Of a stretch of DNA of 64,000 nt, positions 1-9,319 are shown one piece after another. The first letter of the stretch is position 1, and each line of letters begins with the position of its first letter. The stretch lies in the IMG/VR virus record IMGVR_UViG_3300005973_000002; one strand, 5' to 3'. Under the pieces are notes generated by a model that saw only the letters and a program-made list of their open reading frames with translations, did no database searches and had not been told where the DNA came from. Source of the DNA: a virus (taxonomy: Duplodnaviria > Caudoviricetes). The position numbers and the translations under genes were made by a program.

Positions 1-1
1 G

Positions 2-130
2 AAGCATATTGACGACAATGAACCTGGCGTTAATATGACTGTTGAATTCGTTTGTCAAAATTGTGACCATGTGGCAGACATCACGCTGCCCATGGGTCCA
101 TCGTTTTTTTGGCCTAATGCCCGAACATAG
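2..130 (+). CDS. C-terminal end (5'-truncated by the window) of a T4 gp26-like baseplate hub / tail assembly chaperone
   Basis: Manual translation KHIDDNEPGVNMTVEFVCQNCDHVADITLPMGPSFFWPNART*. The PG...CxxC...FF ending is typical of gp26-like proteins. Not in the ORF track. Confidence 0.65.
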   Translation, partial: KHIDDNEPGVNMTVEFVCQNCDHVADITLPMGPSFFWPNART

Positions 131-395
131 AGAAGCGGTTCTACTTGAACCATTTTTCTTGCTCGGGTACTACTTCGGCATGGATTGGGACACTTATTAT
201 TATAAGTTTCCAATCAGTTACAAACGATGGCTCATTGAGCGAATACAAAGAGAGATACAAGAAGCCGCAAAAGCAAATGAACAAGGTGGCTCGCAAGTAC
301 CGTCACGAGGCGCACATCATAATACTCCAGACATGAGAGCGCTGTCTGGCAAACATAGAGCCCAAACTCCCGCAAAGTTGAGACGGTTTACGTAG
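117..395 (+). CDS. gp51-like / tail assembly chaperone second subunit
   Basis: MPEHREAVLLEPFFLLGYYFGMDWDTYYYKFPISYKRWLIERIQREI. Overlaps the gp26-like gene by 14 nt. ATG at 117 is preferred over the track start at 42. Confidence 0.55.
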   Translation: MPEHREAVLLEPFFLLGYYFGMDWDTYYYKFPISYKRWLIERIQREIQEAAKANEQGGSQVPSRGAHHNTPDMRALSGKHRAQTPAKLRRFT

Positions 396-420
396 CTCAA
401 GGATATCCATCCTATTCAAG

Positions 421-452
421 AAAGCCTATAGTATGTAACTATAGGCTTTTTT
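421..452 (+). terminator. Rho-independent terminator-like hairpin (possibly bidirectional)
   Basis: Perfect 11-bp stem AAAGCCTATAG / CTATAGGCTTT with a 7-nt loop, ending in a T6 run 447-452. Confidence 0.7.
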
Positions 453-653
453 ATGAGCAAAACACTTTCAAATTTAGTAAAGAAATACCGACGGGCGAAG
501 ATTGGAAACAAGTTTCAGTTCCCGCATGTTAGAAAGGTTAGCCCAACACTGATATCACAGCAGGTTGTATCAGTCCAACCAATGAGTCTTCCTTCTGGTT
601 TGCTGTTCTACTTAGACTACTCCTATACAAGTGGAAGTAATAAACAGGAATGA
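453..653 (+). CDS. Stand-alone 66-aa fragment of a T4 gp23-type major capsid protein
   Basis: FPHVRKVSPTLISQQVVSVQPMSLPSGLLFYLDYSY matches the conserved gp23 segment VRRxxPxLIAxDxxGVQPMxxPTGxxFxL. Confidence 0.7.
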   Translation: MSKTLSNLVKKYRRAKIGNKFQFPHVRKVSPTLISQQVVSVQPMSLPSGLLFYLDYSYTSGSNKQE

Positions 654-689
654 GCGCCAGCATTCTATTTACTTTAAACGGAGAATGTA

Positions 690-1045
690 ATGCCAGATAA
701 TCAAAACAAAAGCCCGGATGTTGTCGGTAAAGTTGGAGATTTTATAAAAACTTGGCTTCCAATAGTAATCACCATTGGTGGTCTTGTCACAGGGTATTTT
801 GTTTTAAGGCTGAGACAAAGCACCAATTTGAACTTCAAAGAGTAGAAGTTACATCTCTAAGAAATGAGCTATCTTCCCTTAGAAATCAAATTGAAACCGA
901 TAGAAGAGAATGGCAACGTGGTGTTGAGGCCGAATTGAGGACGCTTCGTGAACAATCCATTCGTAGAGATTTTAGAATTCAATCACTTGAAAACCAACGA
1001 AGTGGAGGAAACTCTAATCCGAATGGTTTCACTCCAATAAATTAA
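690..1045 (+). pseudogene. Frameshifted transmembrane + coiled-coil protein (holin/spanin-like architecture)
   Basis: ATG 690 with GGAG SD gives MPDNQ...WLPIVITIGGLVTGYFV (TM helix). It continues as KAETKHQFELQRVEVTSLRNEL (coiled coil) in the -1 frame at about 806. Confidence 0.55.
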
Positions 1046-1289
1046 AAATATGCCAATGTAGATGGTCTGGTATATTTCTTTGCTGGGTTCTTAATTCAAT
1101 ATTTTTACCAAAAACTCTTTGACTGACATCAACCAGATGATAAATAATTTTTGGCGTTATTCTAACTGTATGTTTGCGAAGAACTATCATGGGAACTCTA
1201 CATGAAAGACAGTCACAAATGACAATCAGATCGTCTTCATAGTACCAACGTGTTTTTTGATCTAAGATACAGAGATCGCATTCTTTCAT
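1029..1289 (-). CDS. HIT-like small protein
   Basis: N-terminal CDLC and C-terminal PDHLHWHI (HxHxH triad). Confidence 0.6.
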   Translation of the reverse strand: MKECDLCILDQKTRWYYEDDLIVICDCLSCRVPMIVLRKHTVRITPKIIYHLVDVSQRVFGKNIELRTQQRNIPDHLHWHIFNLLE

Positions 1290-1840
1290 AACAAATCCAA
1301 GTAATCAAGGCCGGCATATGCACAGTCAAACCCTCTTATACTTCCATTCTTAATGTTATTTCTGAATTTACCAAGTGGCCACTTAACTACTTGCAAAAAT
1401 TCATTTTCATCAAGTTCTAATCCATCAACTTTGCGACAGTTGTGTGCAACGAACATGTGTCGCATTCCAGTAGAATATGGATTGTAATTTTGCTTACCAA
1501 GGTAATGAATCTCACCTTCATATCCGGTTTCTTCTTTCAGCTCTCGGATGGCAGATTCCATAGGATCTTCACCCTTTTCCATCCCACCACCTGGTAATTC
1601 TATACAATAGTTTTCAACACCAGGTCTAAATTGCCTTACCGTGAGAACTTTATTGTCATCTGTTACTGCAAAAATTTGGACGGAATCTTTATTGTCATCG
1701 ATAAAAAAGTTCTCGATGATGCCATTTGGTAAACGAAATGTCTTAACAATAAAGTCTTTATCGTACCCAGAAAGGTTATCCTTGATTTTATACTTTTTTT
1801 CGTTTATTTTTTTATAGTCGCCCATGATATCACTTCTCAC
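1286..1840 (-). CDS. Nudix hydrolase (ADP-ribose pyrophosphatase-like)
   Basis: Nudix box GGGMEKGEDPMESAIRELKEETGY, preceded by RQFRP...ELPG. Confidence 0.92.
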   Translation of the reverse strand: MRSDIMGDYKKINEKKYKIKDNLSGYDKDFIVKTFRLPNGIIENFFIDDNKDSVQIFAVTDDNKVLTVRQFRPGVENYCIELPGGGMEKGEDPMESAIRELKEETGYEGEIHYLGKQNYNPYSTGMRHMFVAHNCRKVDGLELDENEFLQVVKWPLGKFRNNIKNGSIRGFDCAYAGLDYLDLL

Positions 1841-1886
1841 TGTAAATAGAGTTTTATTGTCGGTTTCAACAAATTGAAACGTGTTC

Positions 1887-1892
1887 TATACT
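1887..1892 (+). promoter_or_regulatory. Sigma70-like -10 element, candidate leaderless promoter
   Basis: TATACT ends 7 nt before ATG 1900, with no SD between them. Confidence 0.35.
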
Positions 1893-1899
1893 TTCTATC

Positions 1900-2313
1900 A
1901 TGAGTAAGTTTAAAGAACTTGGAAACAGAGTCGGAGAACTCGTTGATGAAAAAAATGCTGCTTATGGAAATTCTTTTGGCGAAGCTGGAGAGTTTTTGAA
2001 GATTCTATATCCTGATGGCATCAATCCAGATCAATACACAGATATGCTTTGCGTAGTTCGAATATTTGATAAGATGAAAAGGATCGCCACTAAAAAAGAT
2101 GCATTTGGTGAAAGTCCATATCAAGACATTGTTGGATATGCCCTTTTGGGACTGAACCTCTCAGAGGGTAAAATTACAGATGCAATGATGTGTACAGTTT
2201 GCAACAAACCTATAGGTGGGAATGATGCCTTTGTAGGCACGGGTGATGACACAGGTCGCAAATTTGCGCATCAACAATGTTGCAAAACTTACAAAACTGA
2301 ACCAGAAGACTGA
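1900..2313 (+). CDS. Nucleotide-modification-associated domain 1 (DUF1599-like) protein
   Basis: KNAAYGNSF...RIFDKMKRI...ESPYQDIVGYALL pattern. Confidence 0.55.
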   Translation: MSKFKELGNRVGELVDEKNAAYGNSFGEAGEFLKILYPDGINPDQYTDMLCVVRIFDKMKRIATKKDAFGESPYQDIVGYALLGLNLSEGKITDAMMCTVCNKPIGGNDAFVGTGDDTGRKFAHQQCCKTYKTEPED

Positions 2314-2382
2314 AACTCGAAAATAAGTTAAAACTCGTATAAGCTTGTGATATGGTAACTTGACCTATATTGGAGGTTCATC

Positions 2383-4383
2383 ATGGCTAAGAAATGGAAT
2401 TTTGATCCTTTTAAAGGCTACAAAGGAAATCTTGATTGGTTGGAGAAGCGAACCATTTTCGTAACTGTGCATGGATCACAAGCTTATGGCACCTCCATGC
2501 CTGAATCTGACATTGATGTCAAAGGCTTGGCTATTCCCCCCAAGGAATATTTCCATGGTTTTGTAAAGAATTTTGAGCAAGCAGAAGGCAAGGAACCATA
2601 TGATATGGTTATTTATGGTCTTCGTAAGTTCATGAAGCTTGCTTCGAATTGCAACCCAAACATCATTGAAGTTTTATTTACCGACCCAGATGATTGGGTT
2701 GTTGACACCGTTATTTTTCGAAAACTTTGGGAGCATCGTGATCTTTTTTTAAGCAAAAAGGCTAGATTCACGTTTAGTGGATATGCAAATCAGCAGCTAA
2801 AACGAATCAAGGGTCACAAGCGTTGGCTTTTGGAGCCGCCTACACATAAGCCGACCCGAGAAGAATTTGGTCTTCCTGTTGAACGTAAGATGAGTCAGTC
2901 AGAAATCGGGGCTACGCAAAAATTGGTTGACGATGGTGCCCCATTGGCTGAAGACATTATGAGACTCTTTCACAAAGAACAGAAGTATTATAGTGCAAGG
3001 CGTGAATGGGAACAATACCAAAAGTGGAAGCGCACTCGTAACGAAAAGCGAGCAAAGCTTGAAGCTGATTTTGGTTATGATTGTTATTTGGATGACACAG
3101 AATTTTTGACGGAACGTGGTTGGCTGCCTTACGAGCAAATCACCAAAGCAGATAAGCTGGCAACGGTTCGTCAAAAAACAGGGGAACTGGAGTTCCAGAA
3201 GTTTAGCGAACGAGTCCGAAAGCCTTATAGTGGAGAAATTCTTCACTTCGAAACCCAAGATAGTCTGTGCTCTGTAACTCCCAATCACAGAATGCTGGTG
3301 TCTCCCATGTGCCGCAGCAGAAAAAACGGGTTTTCAACAAGGTATCGGCAGCAGACTGCCAAGTGGCAAATCAAAAGAGCAGATGAGCTTCTCAATGAGT
3401 ATAAAAGCCATTATCATATTCGGTTGACGGCACATCAAACCAAAGACAACACAGAAATTTCTGAAAACCTTCTTTGGATCGTGGGTACCTATGTTAGTGA
3501 AGGTTGTGTTGGGAAACGACTCAAGAACGGCGCACCATCTGTCTTGAGGTTCTCGCAAAAGGAATCCAATAGGCAGCAGGTGTTTTTGGACTCCTTGTGT
3601 GAGAGCACCGAAATGCGGAAAATCACCCATTTTCGTGAAGACAAGGGGTATAATGAACTGATTTATACCTTGGCTGACCGCAGTTTAGCCAAACAGGTTG
3701 TTGAATGGTGCGGCGAATATTCCAGGAACAAACGACTGCCACCGTGGATCACCACCCTGTCAAGTCAACAAGCAAATAGCTTGTTGAATGTCATGATTGC
3801 TGGGGACGGCACAGAGCGTAAATATAGCTCCATTTACTACACAATTTCGCAAGCTCTGGCTAATGATGTCCAGACACTTGGGGTCATTGCGGGAAGGCCC
3901 ACTAAAATTTGGGGGCCTTACGAGGACGGCATGTATCAGGTATATCTTGGCGATCCAGAGGCAACAGATTCTCTTGTGGCTACCAAATACGGTCATGTTA
4001 CTAGTGAAGAAGTTGTTGATCGCCACATTGTTTGCTTTACTGTACCTAATGAGATTTTGATCACACGTCGGAAGGGTAAGCTGGCAATTCAGGGCAACAC
4101 CAAACATGCTGGTCATCTAGTTCGTCTTATGCGAATGTGTCGAGAAATTCTTAGTGAAGGCAAGGTTTACGTTCGACGACCGGATGCTGATGAACTCATG
4201 GCTATTCGTAAGGGAGCATGGACTTATGATGAGCTAATTGAATGGGCCGACAAACAAGATAAAGAAATGCAAAAACTATACGAGACTTCTCCACTTCCTG
4301 AAAAGCCTCAAGTAGAAAAAATTGACAAGGTTTGCCAAATGCTTGTAGAAGAGGCTTTACGGCACGAGTCACTTCGGTTCTAA
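2383..4383 (+). CDS. DNA polymerase beta-superfamily nucleotidyltransferase (RlaP/Nuc-transf-like) containing an intein
   Basis: HGSQAYGTSMPESDIDVKG motif, NCNPNIIEVLF and GYD|TKHAGHLVRL. GGAGG SD upstream. The spliced product would be 327 aa. Confidence 0.88.
   Translation: MAKKWNFDPFKGYKGNLDWLEKRTIFVTVHGSQAYGTSMPESDIDVKGLAIPPKEYFHGFVKNFEQAEGKEPYDMVIYGLRKFMKLASNCNPNIIEVLFTDPDDWVVDTVIFRKLWEHRDLFLSKKARFTFSGYANQQLKRIKGHKRWLLEPPTHKPTREEFGLPVERKMSQSEIGATQKLVDDGAPLAEDIMRLFHKEQKYYSARREWEQYQKWKRTRNEKRAKLEADFGYDCYLDDTEFLTERGWLPYEQITKADKLATVRQKTGELEFQKFSERVRKPYSGEILHFETQDSLCSVTPNHRMLVSPMCRSRKNGFSTRYRQQTAKWQIKRADELLNEYKSHYHIRLTAHQTKDNTEISENLLWIVGTYVSEGCVGKRLKNGAPSVLRFSQKESNRQQVFLDSLCESTEMRKITHFREDKGYNELIYTLADRSLAKQVVEWCGEYSRNKRLPPWITTLSSQQANSLLNVMIAGDGTERKYSSIYYTISQALANDVQTLGVIAGRPTKIWGPYEDGMYQVYLGDPEATDSLVATKYGHVTSEEVVDRHIVCFTVPNEILITRRKGKLAIQGNTKHAGHLVRLMRMCREILSEGKVYVRRPDADELMAIRKGAWTYDELIEWADKQDKEMQKLYETSPLPEKPQVEKIDKVCQMLVEEALRHESLRF
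3082..4098 (+). mobile_element. Intein (339 aa) with LAGLIDADG homing endonuclease domain
   Basis: Starts CYLDDTEFLT; has block B VTPNHRML and LAGLIDADG-like VGTYVSEG and MIAGDGT; ends CFTVPNE...LAIQGN, followed by Thr. Confidence 0.92.
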
Positions 4384-4449
4384 CGTCAATAAACATAGCA
4401 CACAGCCTTCCAGGTTTTGCTGTCTACTTATTGTGGAAAAGGAGAAAAC

Positions 4450-5118
4450 ATGGAAGGCTCAATCATATTAATTGCTACCATAGCAGCATTCGTAGCTATC
4501 GGTATTTACATGCTTGTGAGGATTTTGAAGGGACCAAAATTACCAGAAGGCCATCAATTTGTAGCAGAACACAAAGGTAATAAAGCAATTGTTATAATTG
4601 ATAAAAACCTTGAAGGTGCTATCAAAAACAAAGATGGTAGTGTTATTTCTTGGGTTTTAAATGGTAAGTTTTACTATGGCAATGATCTTGCAATAAAATG
4701 TGCTAAGGCAATCAAAGCAACAGAGCTAGCTTTTAAAGAAAAAGGAGTTGAAAAGGCTGATGTGAGTGAGGTAGTATTCTTATTCAGCACAGATGCTACC
4801 TTTGAAGCGGGATCAAAATGGTGGCAAGCCTGGGCAGCAGGAGCAGCAGCGTATTCTACAGAATTGGTGGGAGATTTTAGAATTAAAGTTCTACCAATGG
4901 CTGTGATACGTACAAAATATATTAAAACTGTATCTGAAAGAGGACAGCCGGCAATACATGAGCTTGTTCATTTGCTTAATAAACAAGCTAATGGAGATTA
5001 TAGTCACAGTCACACCGATCCCAAGTTATGGCTTGGACCTGGTGGAACAGGATCAGTCGAAGGAATTGGTGTACAAAAATGGAAAGAAATCGTAGGTACA
5101 CCTGATGACCAAAACTAA
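4450..5118 (+). CDS. Membrane-anchored zincin-like metallopeptidase
   Basis: N-terminal TM helix IILIATIAAFVAIGIYMLV and HELVH (HExxH) followed by HSH. GGAG SD before ATG 4450. Confidence 0.5.
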   Translation: MEGSIILIATIAAFVAIGIYMLVRILKGPKLPEGHQFVAEHKGNKAIVIIDKNLEGAIKNKDGSVISWVLNGKFYYGNDLAIKCAKAIKATELAFKEKGVEKADVSEVVFLFSTDATFEAGSKWWQAWAAGAAAYSTELVGDFRIKVLPMAVIRTKYIKTVSERGQPAIHELVHLLNKQANGDYSHSHTDPKLWLGPGGTGSVEGIGVQKWKEIVGTPDDQN

Positions 5119-5127
5119 ATACCAGCA

Positions 5128-6009
5128 CTATTGAAGCTTCCAAACATAACCTTTGTATGATTTATTGTATTTTATTGCTAAACTAATTCCATTATATTGA
5201 CAATTGTTTTGTCGTGCGGCTTCGCTCATACTTGGCCAAACTTTGATCAGTTTGCCTGTTGGTTCAAACTGTTTAACAGGTTTAGCATTATTGTAACACA
5301 ATTTTCTATTTTCATTTAATTGTGCATGAGATGATAGCCTATCGTCGACAATATCTTTTGAATCAGGCCAGCGCCAATAAAATCCACCGACGGTTCGATG
5401 CGGATTTTGGTTGATGGAATAGGAAATATTGCGCCAACTTTTATATCCAATTCCAAGACCAGCTTGTCTGGTCGATGGCCAGTTTTTAATAACTTTACCT
5501 GTTTGAGGGCAAATTTGTAAAACTTCTTTCGAAGTTGCTTTTCCGCCTGGGTTGTACTTTCTAAGTTTTTCTTTATGTTCTTTTGTATGTTTGGTTGGAA
5601 TGATTTCCCCCGTTTCTAACTTTAGTTTACGAGTTTTTGATATTTTTTTCCTTGTTTCTTCGGGAGTTTGTGACCATGGACCTTCTTTTTGAATGACTTT
5701 TCTCTTGTGGTTCAAAAAATTTGAATCATCCCAAAATTTGTCAACATATTGTTGTTCGACAGTTCTTCTTTTCAGAGTTGTTCCTTCAATTGTTTCAATA
5801 ACTTCAAACAAAAATTCCTCTGGCTTATATTTGGACCATAAATGCAACAAATGCTTGTTATGATGTTTTCCTACATTTAATCTGCTTTGATGCTGTGAGG
5901 CTCTAACTTTGAAGCGCTTCGCACTTCCAATATAAAATTTGCTAGTTGTTAAATGTGTTATTTTATATATTCCACCTTTGTTAGCATCTCCTTTAAACTC
6001 TTTCTTCGT
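5128..6009 (-). mobile_element. GIY-YIG homing endonuclease with NUMOD3/NUMOD1 repeats; ACG at the expected start
   Basis: The frame extends 53 codons upstream of the track start as TKKEFKG...GGIYKITHLTTSKFYIGSAKRF. Two NUMOD1-like C-terminal repeats. Confidence 0.85.
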
Positions 6010-8428: not shown

Positions 8429-9319
8429 TCAAATACTTGTCCAACCCTTATATTCTTCTTGCTTTCCTCTGGCTACTCTGCTCATTACTTGAGGAATAAG
8501 TTTAATTGAAGACTTCGCACAAAACTCTTGCATATTTGTGATAATAACTACTTCACCCTCTGGATTGCGAAGCTTATATGTCTTCTGTTTTAATTTTCGT
8601 AATCTATCTGAAGCTCGTTTTTTTCGTGCTTCATCTTTTGCCCAAGAACGCTTTCGACCTTCAATTACCTTTTCTCGGTACTCAGGATCTTGCCAAAGCT
8701 TCTTATTGAGCTTAGATACAGATTTAGAAATCTTCTTACGTGTTTCCTTTGAAACCTCTTTGCCTTGAGCAGCTTTAGACAGCTTTTTACGGTACTCAGG
8801 CTTCTGTGTAAAATTTCGGATGGCCTCAACATGTTTCTCTCGGTACTCAGCGTCTTGCCAAAGCTCTTTCGTCTTCTTCGATTGAAACTCACTTTGAAAC
8901 TTACGATATTCGGGGTCTTTCCACCTTTTTTTCATTGAAATTGACATCTTCTTTCGAGTTTCTTTTGGAGTTTTTGAACGACACGAACGTCCGTTTCGGT
9001 TTGTTTTTTTGTCTATGTTATAGCACTTTTGCTGACTGTCATAGTGTTTATTGATTAGTTGTTGTTCAACTAGAAGTCTTGCTTTTTGTTCGCCCAATAC
9101 AACTTTAACAACATGAAATTCAAATGAAGACTCACCACATTTATTAAAATCATGTTGTAGAAACCGATTGGAATGTCGATTTTCCTGCAAAGCTTTTAGA
9201 TGTTCGGTAGAACGTTGCTTGAATACTTTACAGGAACCAATGTAAATGCGACCATTGGATATGTTGATTATTTTGTAGACGCCTGATTTGTTTGAATGTC
9301 CGTTGTATACTCTTTTCAT
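8429..9319 (-). mobile_element. Intact GIY-YIG homing endonuclease with NUMOD3 and WxDPEYR repeats
   Basis: GVYKIINISNGRIYIGSCK, SKETRKKIS and repeated W-x-D-P/A-E-Y-R. Confidence 0.9.

Follow-up and report, generated by a model that had tools for sequence, protein, structure and literature searches.

The window, by which we mean the whole 64-kb stretch of phage DNA that was analysed, begins inside a baseplate-hub gene. This gene is followed by a small ORF, a strong hairpin and the mini-gene that is the subject of this analysis. Many comparisons below were made with L087, a 40-kb IMG/VR contig found by a synteny search with a neighbouring ORF and sharing ~73% DNA identity with the window over 2.2 kb. 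The features of the locus are as follows.

2..130, plus strand: baseplate-hub gene of the T4 gp26 type, of which the window contains only the 3' end; 90% protein identity with L087.
117..395, plus strand: small ORF, 92 aa from the ATG at 117, in the position held by gene 51 in T4 (T4 order 26-51).
418..452, plus strand: hairpin and U-tract running into the start codon of the mini-gene; stem of 15 bp with the A-tract/U-tract extension counted in, loop of 5 nt.
453..653, plus strand: mini-gene corresponding to the capsid N-arm and first P-domain hairpin, ATG to TGA, 66 aa.
690..1045, plus strand: gene of a membrane-anchor and coiled-coil protein, split in two frames (690-845 and 752-1045); intact, with 127 aa, in L087:5248-5631.

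The identity of the truncated first gene was read from its complete orthologue in L087 (3795-4682), which matched Pfam T4_baseplate (PF12322, E=6e-23) and phrog_150, 'baseplate hub'. The 92-aa ORF matched no Pfam or PHROG family, while its L087 orthologue is 89% identical. Its ATG precedes the stop codon of the hub gene (128-130) by 14 nt, and this overlap is kept in L087. A run of seven T residues (104-110) is found at the overlap of the hub gene and the next ORF. A programmed frameshift joining the two genes at this run was considered and set aside as unneeded, the conserved ordinary overlap being sufficient.

On the other side of the mini-gene, the split membrane-anchor gene starts 40 nt downstream, and its split falls at a short T run; the cause may be an error in sequencing, recent decay into a pseudogene or a slippery site. 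Beyond this gene we observed a plastic stretch with genes of a NUDIX hydrolase, an intein-bearing nucleotidyltransferase, HNH and GIY-YIG endonucleases and an endolysin-like protein. The nucleotidyltransferase gene (phrog_388, window 2383-4383) carries an insert of ~340 aa with Cys as the first residue, GN/T at the end and a LAGLIDADG-like motif, all of which look like an intein in sequence; the orthologue at L087:6912-7895 (327 aa) is without the insert. The HNH and GIY-YIG homing-endonuclease genes are located at 5128-5850 and 8429-9319, both on the minus strand, in a region rich in mobile elements.

The hairpin at 418-452 had a predicted folding energy of -23.4 kcal/mol (z -5.96), and none of 200 shuffled sequences was as stable. 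In L087 the stem is identical and the loop is different, with an energy of -24.8 kcal/mol (z -6.03). The structure occurs once in the 64-kb window. It looks like a terminator, and it was not among the listings of a simple terminator scan of the window. An earlier sequence-only reading of this DNA had placed the mini-gene directly after a terminator U-tract, and a conserved 15-bp hairpin with a U-tract does abut the ATG. No Shine-Dalgarno sequence was found before the mini-gene start; the strong hairpin sits on the start codon and masks the sole AGG near it. The T4 late-promoter motif TATAAATA was not found near the mini-gene, nor was it enriched in the window. The position of the mini-gene beside late morphogenesis genes suggests late expression. 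The same reading had described the mini-gene as lying away from any head module. No other capsid piece was found in the 64 kb. The surroundings of the mini-gene are not neutral with respect to morphogenesis genes, however: it is located directly downstream of a gp26-type baseplate-hub gene and one small ORF.

Three parts can be distinguished in the 66-aa product.

456..506, plus strand: N-terminal basic helix, residues 2-18, LSNLVKKYRRAKIG, with the motif L-[VIL]-K-x-Y-[RK]; AlphaFold pLDDT ~82.
513..632, plus strand: capsid-derived module, residues 21-60, FQFPHVRKVSPTLISQQVVSVQPMSLPSGLLFYLDYSYTS, corresponding in alignments to T4 gp23 residues ~93-131.
630..650, plus strand: family-specific tail SGSNKQE (SGS, then charged residues), found in 0 full-length capsid proteins examined.

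The ORF list and the translation agree with the claim of a 66-aa ORF with a VQPMSLPSG core (residues 41-49) and a basic N-terminus. The latter has 10 K/R versus 2 D/E residues, with KKYRRAK at residues 10-16, and the net charge of the protein is ~+8. The gp23 HMM match, the lack of which had been named as a refutation, was obtained: Pfam Gp23 (PF07068) scored 37.2 bits (E=3e-9), exceeding the curated gathering cut-off of 24.4. The match joins residues 19-62 of the mini-protein with profile positions 5-48 of 376, or 12% of the profile. PHROG 138, 'major head protein', matched as well (E=1e-7), and the core VSVQPMSLPSGLLFYLDY is identical in related 640-aa capsid proteins. The observation of a capsid segment in ORF 453-653 is thus correct, far beyond chance.

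We found that the start of the mini-ORF falls at about the aligned position of the mature capsid N-terminus. The 66 residues contain no [LI]-x-E site for propeptide cleavage of the T4 type, and no T4-type capsid-targeting sequence was read in the mini-protein. Nor is the protein a complete HK97-type fold, which has an N-arm, a P domain with a spine helix and an A domain in ~450-650 aa. A Tat signal in the basic N-terminus was rejected, the RR pair being variable among orthologues (YRRAK, YRKAK, YRHRK). An identical 66-aa protein is encoded on five contigs in JGI/IMG, the longest of 461,086 bp.

In L087 the mini-gene has an orthologue of 68 aa in the same place, after the same hairpin, with 71% protein identity. 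Between the two genes the proportion of synonymous differences was 0.84 (saturated), while the proportion of non-synonymous differences was 0.20 overall and 0.12 in the core; the latter proportion ranged from 0.06 to 0.25 in the neighbouring genes. Differences at the first, second and third codon positions numbered 15, 11 and 38, respectively, and the synonymous and non-synonymous proportions differed with a Fisher p=1e-14. Start, stop and length are conserved among the orthologues. Such purifying selection rules out a neutral relic and runs against the neutral evolution that the earlier reading had named as an outcome unfavourable to its proposal. Its view that the ORF is not a simple relic is borne out by the orthologue in the same place, the conserved start and stop, the strong purifying selection and the membership of an old, diversified family, described below. 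Absence from relatives had been named as another unfavourable outcome. This was not what we observed, as the orthologue is present in L087, although more distant relatives lack the mini-gene.

A search with the full capsid protein of a Flavobacterium phage (tblastn) matched only positions 519-668 of the 64-kb window, and a motif scan for further capsid pieces gave nothing more. No intron or other Rfam family was found in 1-6000 (E<=0.1). A split or intron-interrupted capsid gene was rejected on these results and on the conserved position of the stop codon; a frameshift or assembly artefact was rejected given orthologues of the same architecture and the identical protein on five contigs. Judged by these sequence comparisons, ORF 453-653 is a functional gene, selected and capsid-derived.

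With respect to capsid anatomy, residues 25-58 of the mini-protein align with residues 98-131 of T4 gp23, and the joint alignment has invariant positions V99, V114, Q115, P116, M117, P120, G122 and F125 (T4 numbering). The Gol region of gp23, which we take to span residues ~93-122, is covered by the module with an identity of ~40-50%. The conserved module runs 9 residues past T4 residue 122, completing the hairpin. Residues 66-105 of T4 gp23 form the N-fist and the N-arm, which lack order in the prohead and attach to neighbouring subunits and capsomers at a later stage, while residues 132-160 form I-domain linker 1 (PMC9546572, PMC9958956). Since the end of the module, at T4 residue 131, adjoins linker 1 at residue 132, the module stops at a domain border. 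The module thus comprises the end of the N-arm and the entire first hairpin of the P domain. In T4, the N-arm takes part in contacts both inside a capsomer and from one capsomer to another, and the sheet of the P domain touches a helix of the neighbouring capsomer (PMC9546572, PMC9958956). The T4 head-length mutations A94V and G97S, which fall in this stretch, were interpreted as affecting scaffold contacts (PMC9546572). Gol itself is a 29-residue segment, the most conserved part of gp23, which as a free peptide binds domains II-III of EF-Tu; the Gol-bound EF-Tu is open to the Lit protease, which cuts it at Gly59-Ile60 (PMC3014915).

The AlphaFold model of the 66-aa protein had a mean pLDDT of 66, with ~82 for the helix at residues 2-18 and 59-67 for the capsid-derived part. 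For a related family of 106-aa proteins the N-terminal barrel scored ~80 and the capsid-derived tail ~30. The capsid-derived module may therefore be disordered alone and need a partner in order to fold, although low scores by themselves are no proof of this.

A second mini-gene, copying another part of the capsid protein, was found in L087.

L087:3538-3720, same orientation as the hub gene: C-terminal-strand mini-gene, 60 aa, FVEAGFVYAPYIPLQVTP, with the conserved capsid strand GFVYAPYIPL.

Its neighbours are a methyltransferase gene on one side and, just downstream, the baseplate-hub gene, so that the two mini-genes of L087 flank the hub gene in the same orientation. Its match to Gp23 was weak and below the cut-off (profile positions 307-331, E=0.009). 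The hexapeptide LVKTYR is present in both mini-genes of L087. An exhaustive search for C-terminal-strand mini-proteins produced seven cluster representatives of 60-94 aa, the query included; the motif L-[VILC]-K-x-Y-[RK] is present in four of these. The form L-[VIL]-K-x-Y-[RK] of this helix motif is common to the N-arm mini-protein and the C-terminal-fragment mini-proteins P0253, P0254 and P0255. The possibility that LVKxYR is a tag borne by many genes of the window was considered and rejected: only the mini-genes carry it, and the five loose matches in the window, against two expected, are otherwise unconvincing. Both copied strands are part of the P domain in the HK97 fold; from its topology we infer that they would pair with each other.

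Another C-terminal-strand mini-protein, P0256 (94 aa), begins with a twin-arginine-type leader, MKRRRFLRSLGIIGIGLTSG; such a leader raises the possibility of export for some members of the family. Both capsid motifs were also seen in non-capsid proteins of L097, an unrelated contig. Here, tandem small paralogues with a beta-barrel start of the G-x-L-V type occupy 147-2906, one of them being the 106-aa capsid-segment protein. Located 1.7 kb downstream of the 106-aa protein, a 188-aa protein (L097:3771-4337) begins with ...GYVYAPYVPLQTT, the capsid C-terminal motif here being GYVYAPYVPL.

A profile search for short relatives of the mini-protein returned 2,473 short proteins at E<=0.01. Many of these are capsid genes cut at contig ends; still, a distinct clade of mini-proteins stands out among them. 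Further members of 66-71 aa are P0002, P0126, P0132, P0167 and P0183, and a 67-aa cluster of 67 members is present in the ESM Atlas. The clade is widespread in metagenomes. Common to all its members is the module FP-x-V-R-R-V-F-P-x-L-I-A-x-x-I-V-S-V-Q-P-M-S-L-P-S-G-L-L-F-Y-L-D-Y-x-Y-G-S-G-S, after which comes a charged tail. At the N-terminus the members vary, with a basic helix in the 453-653 gene, a beta-barrel of ~55 residues, longer helices or a zinc ribbon. Among these, the 106-aa family with the beta-barrel N-terminus had a mean column identity of 84% over 17 aligned members.

Two characters separate the clade from full-length capsid proteins. Position -10 from VQPM is Ala or Gly in all 102 full-length capsid proteins examined, compared to Pro or Ser in 56 of the 66 proteins whose C-terminus lies shortly after the core (within ~17 residues of VQPM..P.G..F.LD). 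The window protein has Pro31 at this position (VSPTLIS) and ends 11 residues after the core. The second character, [ST]GS with a charged tail after YLDY.Y, is present in 47 of the 66 short proteins, with SGSNKQE in the window protein. The two go together: 48 proteins have the [ST]GS tail and all of them have Pro or Ser at -10, while none of the 181 proteins with Ala or Gly at that position (the 102 full-length capsid proteins included) has the tail. The shared residue at -10 and the shared SGS tail argue for one old origin of the clade followed by shuffling of the N-terminal parts. In databases the members are named only 'hypothetical protein', and we found no paper on the family in the literature.

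The mini-gene is absent from the more distant syntenic loci L088-L090. Only the capsid gene was matched in five large records of related phages, among them a complete one of 305 kb. We therefore regard the mini-gene as accessory. Among 50,697 deposited phage records, 191 were matched, once each; all of the 40 matches listed are in capsid genes or unannotated DNA, and the mini-gene family was not found at this sensitivity. We found no further IMG/VR loci for the 106-aa family, whose members in L097 and L099 share 95% identity; 6 of their codon differences are synonymous and 7 non-synonymous. Scans seeded with mini-proteins were swamped by full capsid genes. A broken capsid gene was also encountered: that of IMGVR_UViG_3300020576_005098 (L014:6001-7681, on the contig to which L197 also belongs), a major capsid gene, is divided into frames of 515 aa and 206 aa.

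The mini-protein is probably a molecular mimic. The sequence-only reading had offered three roles, a capsid-interface mimic, a decoy and an inhibitor, and each is consistent with the anatomy of the copied segment (N-arm, first hairpin and Gol region) and with the low-confidence model. Our preference, held tentatively, is for a fold-on-binding mimic of the microProtein kind that acts on the head assembly of the phage itself. The mini-protein consists of the basic helix, the end of the capsid N-arm with the complete first P-domain hairpin, and the SGS/charged tail, and it may be largely disordered. The gene would be expressed late. The module would fold upon binding and occupy in trans a site normally taken by the capsid segment, with the scaffold core or the capsomer edges of the phage's own head-assembly machinery as the favoured target. 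Acting jointly with the C-terminal-strand mini-protein, it could form a small sheet resembling the P domain. In this way, contacts of the capsid protein would be capped or tuned during the building of a very large head. We favour a target in head assembly because the module is a complete structural unit, because of the T4 genetics of the region, and because of the sister gene and the position flanking a late morphogenesis gene. Two points weigh against it: an accessory gene fits an arms race at least as well as an assembly factor, and, with the hairpin being buried once the capsid protein has folded, a loose peptide may mimic the nascent rather than the assembled form.

Somewhat less probable, in our judgement, is that the mini-protein is a decoy or antagonist of host proteins recognising the nascent capsid protein, with the Gol-equivalent epitope blunting abortive infection triggered by the capsid. 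Capsid proteins trigger Lit, CapRel, CmdTAC, Avs7 and other defences (PMC9712102; 10.1101/2024.02.24.581662; 10.64898/2026.01.04.697583), and the module spans the equivalent of the T4 Gol 29-mer, which as a free peptide binds EF-Tu and so enables Lit (PMC3014915). The patchy distribution of the mini-gene, the plastic stretch beside it (NUDIX gene, intein and homing endonucleases) and the shuffled N-terminal parts of the family are in line with a decoy. A module modelled with low confidence may also suit binders of unfolded chains. On the other hand, of the systems known to read a short or nascent capsid segment, both are activated by it (Gol suffices for Lit, and the capsid protein releases the CmdTAC toxin), and a faithful copy of the trigger should activate the defence rather than block it. 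No phage decoy derived from the phage's own trigger was found in the reviews consulted, and the late expression suggested by the position would be poor timing for a pre-emptive decoy. We favour the head-assembly mimic over the host-factor decoy.

We consider it improbable that the mini-protein is a ligand of EF-Tu that adjusts translation, binding domains II-III of EF-Tu-GDP and altering the elongation or folding of abundant late proteins. Gol does bind EF-Tu and inhibits its GTPase, and the gp23 of all T4-like phages was proposed to contact EF-Tu (PMC3014915). However, a role at EF-Tu would leave unexplained why sister mini-genes copy other parts of the capsid protein and why the second hairpin strand is conserved, located beyond the Gol region, and the module is only ~40-50% identical to T4 Gol. 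We give a similarly low rank to a minor virion component, a cement or internal protein whose module inserts into or docks on the capsid lattice and anchors the basic helix, for example to DNA. The net charge of ~+8 agrees with such a role, and in the 106-aa family the module is modelled as a low-confidence tail on a folded barrel, as an anchoring peptide might be. The lack of both an L/I-x-E protease site and a T4-type capsid-targeting sequence speaks against it, and it overlaps the favoured reading, as both need binding to the capsid protein. Finally, a non-functional capsid-gene remnant, a split-gene exon or an assembly artefact is very improbable: the match covers only 12% of the Gp23 profile, errors or decay do happen in the region (the gene 40 nt downstream is frameshifted) and some short database matches are plainly truncated capsid genes, but against this stand the strong selection with conserved length, start and stop, the derived characters found in 0 capsid proteins examined, the 64 kb with no further capsid piece and 1-6000 with no intron or Rfam family, and the identical protein on five contigs.

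The nearest known proteins are T4 gp23 and the vertex protein gp24 (PF07068, HK97 fold; PDB 5vf3, 6uzc, 7vs5), to which the mini-protein is homologous, its HMM match being above the cut-off. Unlike these, it has no propeptide, spine helix, A domain or I domain, so that no capsomer can be made of it; it adds its own basic helix and SGS tail and is encoded outside the head module. The T4 Gol peptide is the equivalent capsid segment and was a free short polypeptide in the Gol experiments, as the mini-protein is. Gol, however, is a part of gp23, while the mini-protein has a natural gene to itself, in which the second hairpin strand is encoded as well.

In eukaryotes, where the concept arose, microProteins are small interfering proteins that derive from the part of a larger protein engaged in interactions. 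The mini-protein resembles them in being a segment prone to interactions, taken from a larger multimeric protein and retained by selection while the rest is absent. We found no phage microProtein built from a capsid protein in the literature. The capsid-targeting sequence of T4 (IPI-III, Alt) is an N-terminal leader of ~10 residues that is removed at an L/I-x-E site. It is likewise a short head-related peptide, and the mini-protein could similarly direct a protein to the assembling head; that leader, however, is not derived from the capsid fold, and the mini-protein has no cleavage site. DSAD1 of phage SPbeta inhibits DSR2 in competition with the tail-tube trigger (PMC11087589). The likeness to DSAD1 is in the concept of a phage protein competing with a structural-protein trigger for a host sensor. 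We know of no homology between DSAD1 and its trigger, whereas the candidate competitor here is a copy of the trigger itself.

Taken more broadly, the fold-on-binding mimic could be one element of a larger system. It is possible, though less likely than not, that huge T4-like phages keep a modular set of mini-proteins, each presenting one signature peptide of the capsid, such as the N-arm with the first P-domain hairpin or the C-terminal P-domain strand, on a shared helix and jointly making a trans-acting mimic of the P domain. This set would be a new class of regulators that either tune the assembly of very large capsids or neutralise capsid-sensing immunity by way of a non-activating trigger epitope.

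The segment has several roles in T4, known or inferred: the binding of EF-Tu that enables Lit, an inferred scaffold contact and the linking of capsomers. Capsid proteins are also major triggers of bacterial immunity (Lit, CapRel, CmdTAC, Avs7 and TIR systems). A conserved, selected natural gene for the most conserved peptide of the capsid alone would offer a handle on both capsid sensing and the sizing of giant capsids. Even in plain description, the clade is a new protein family for phage biology.
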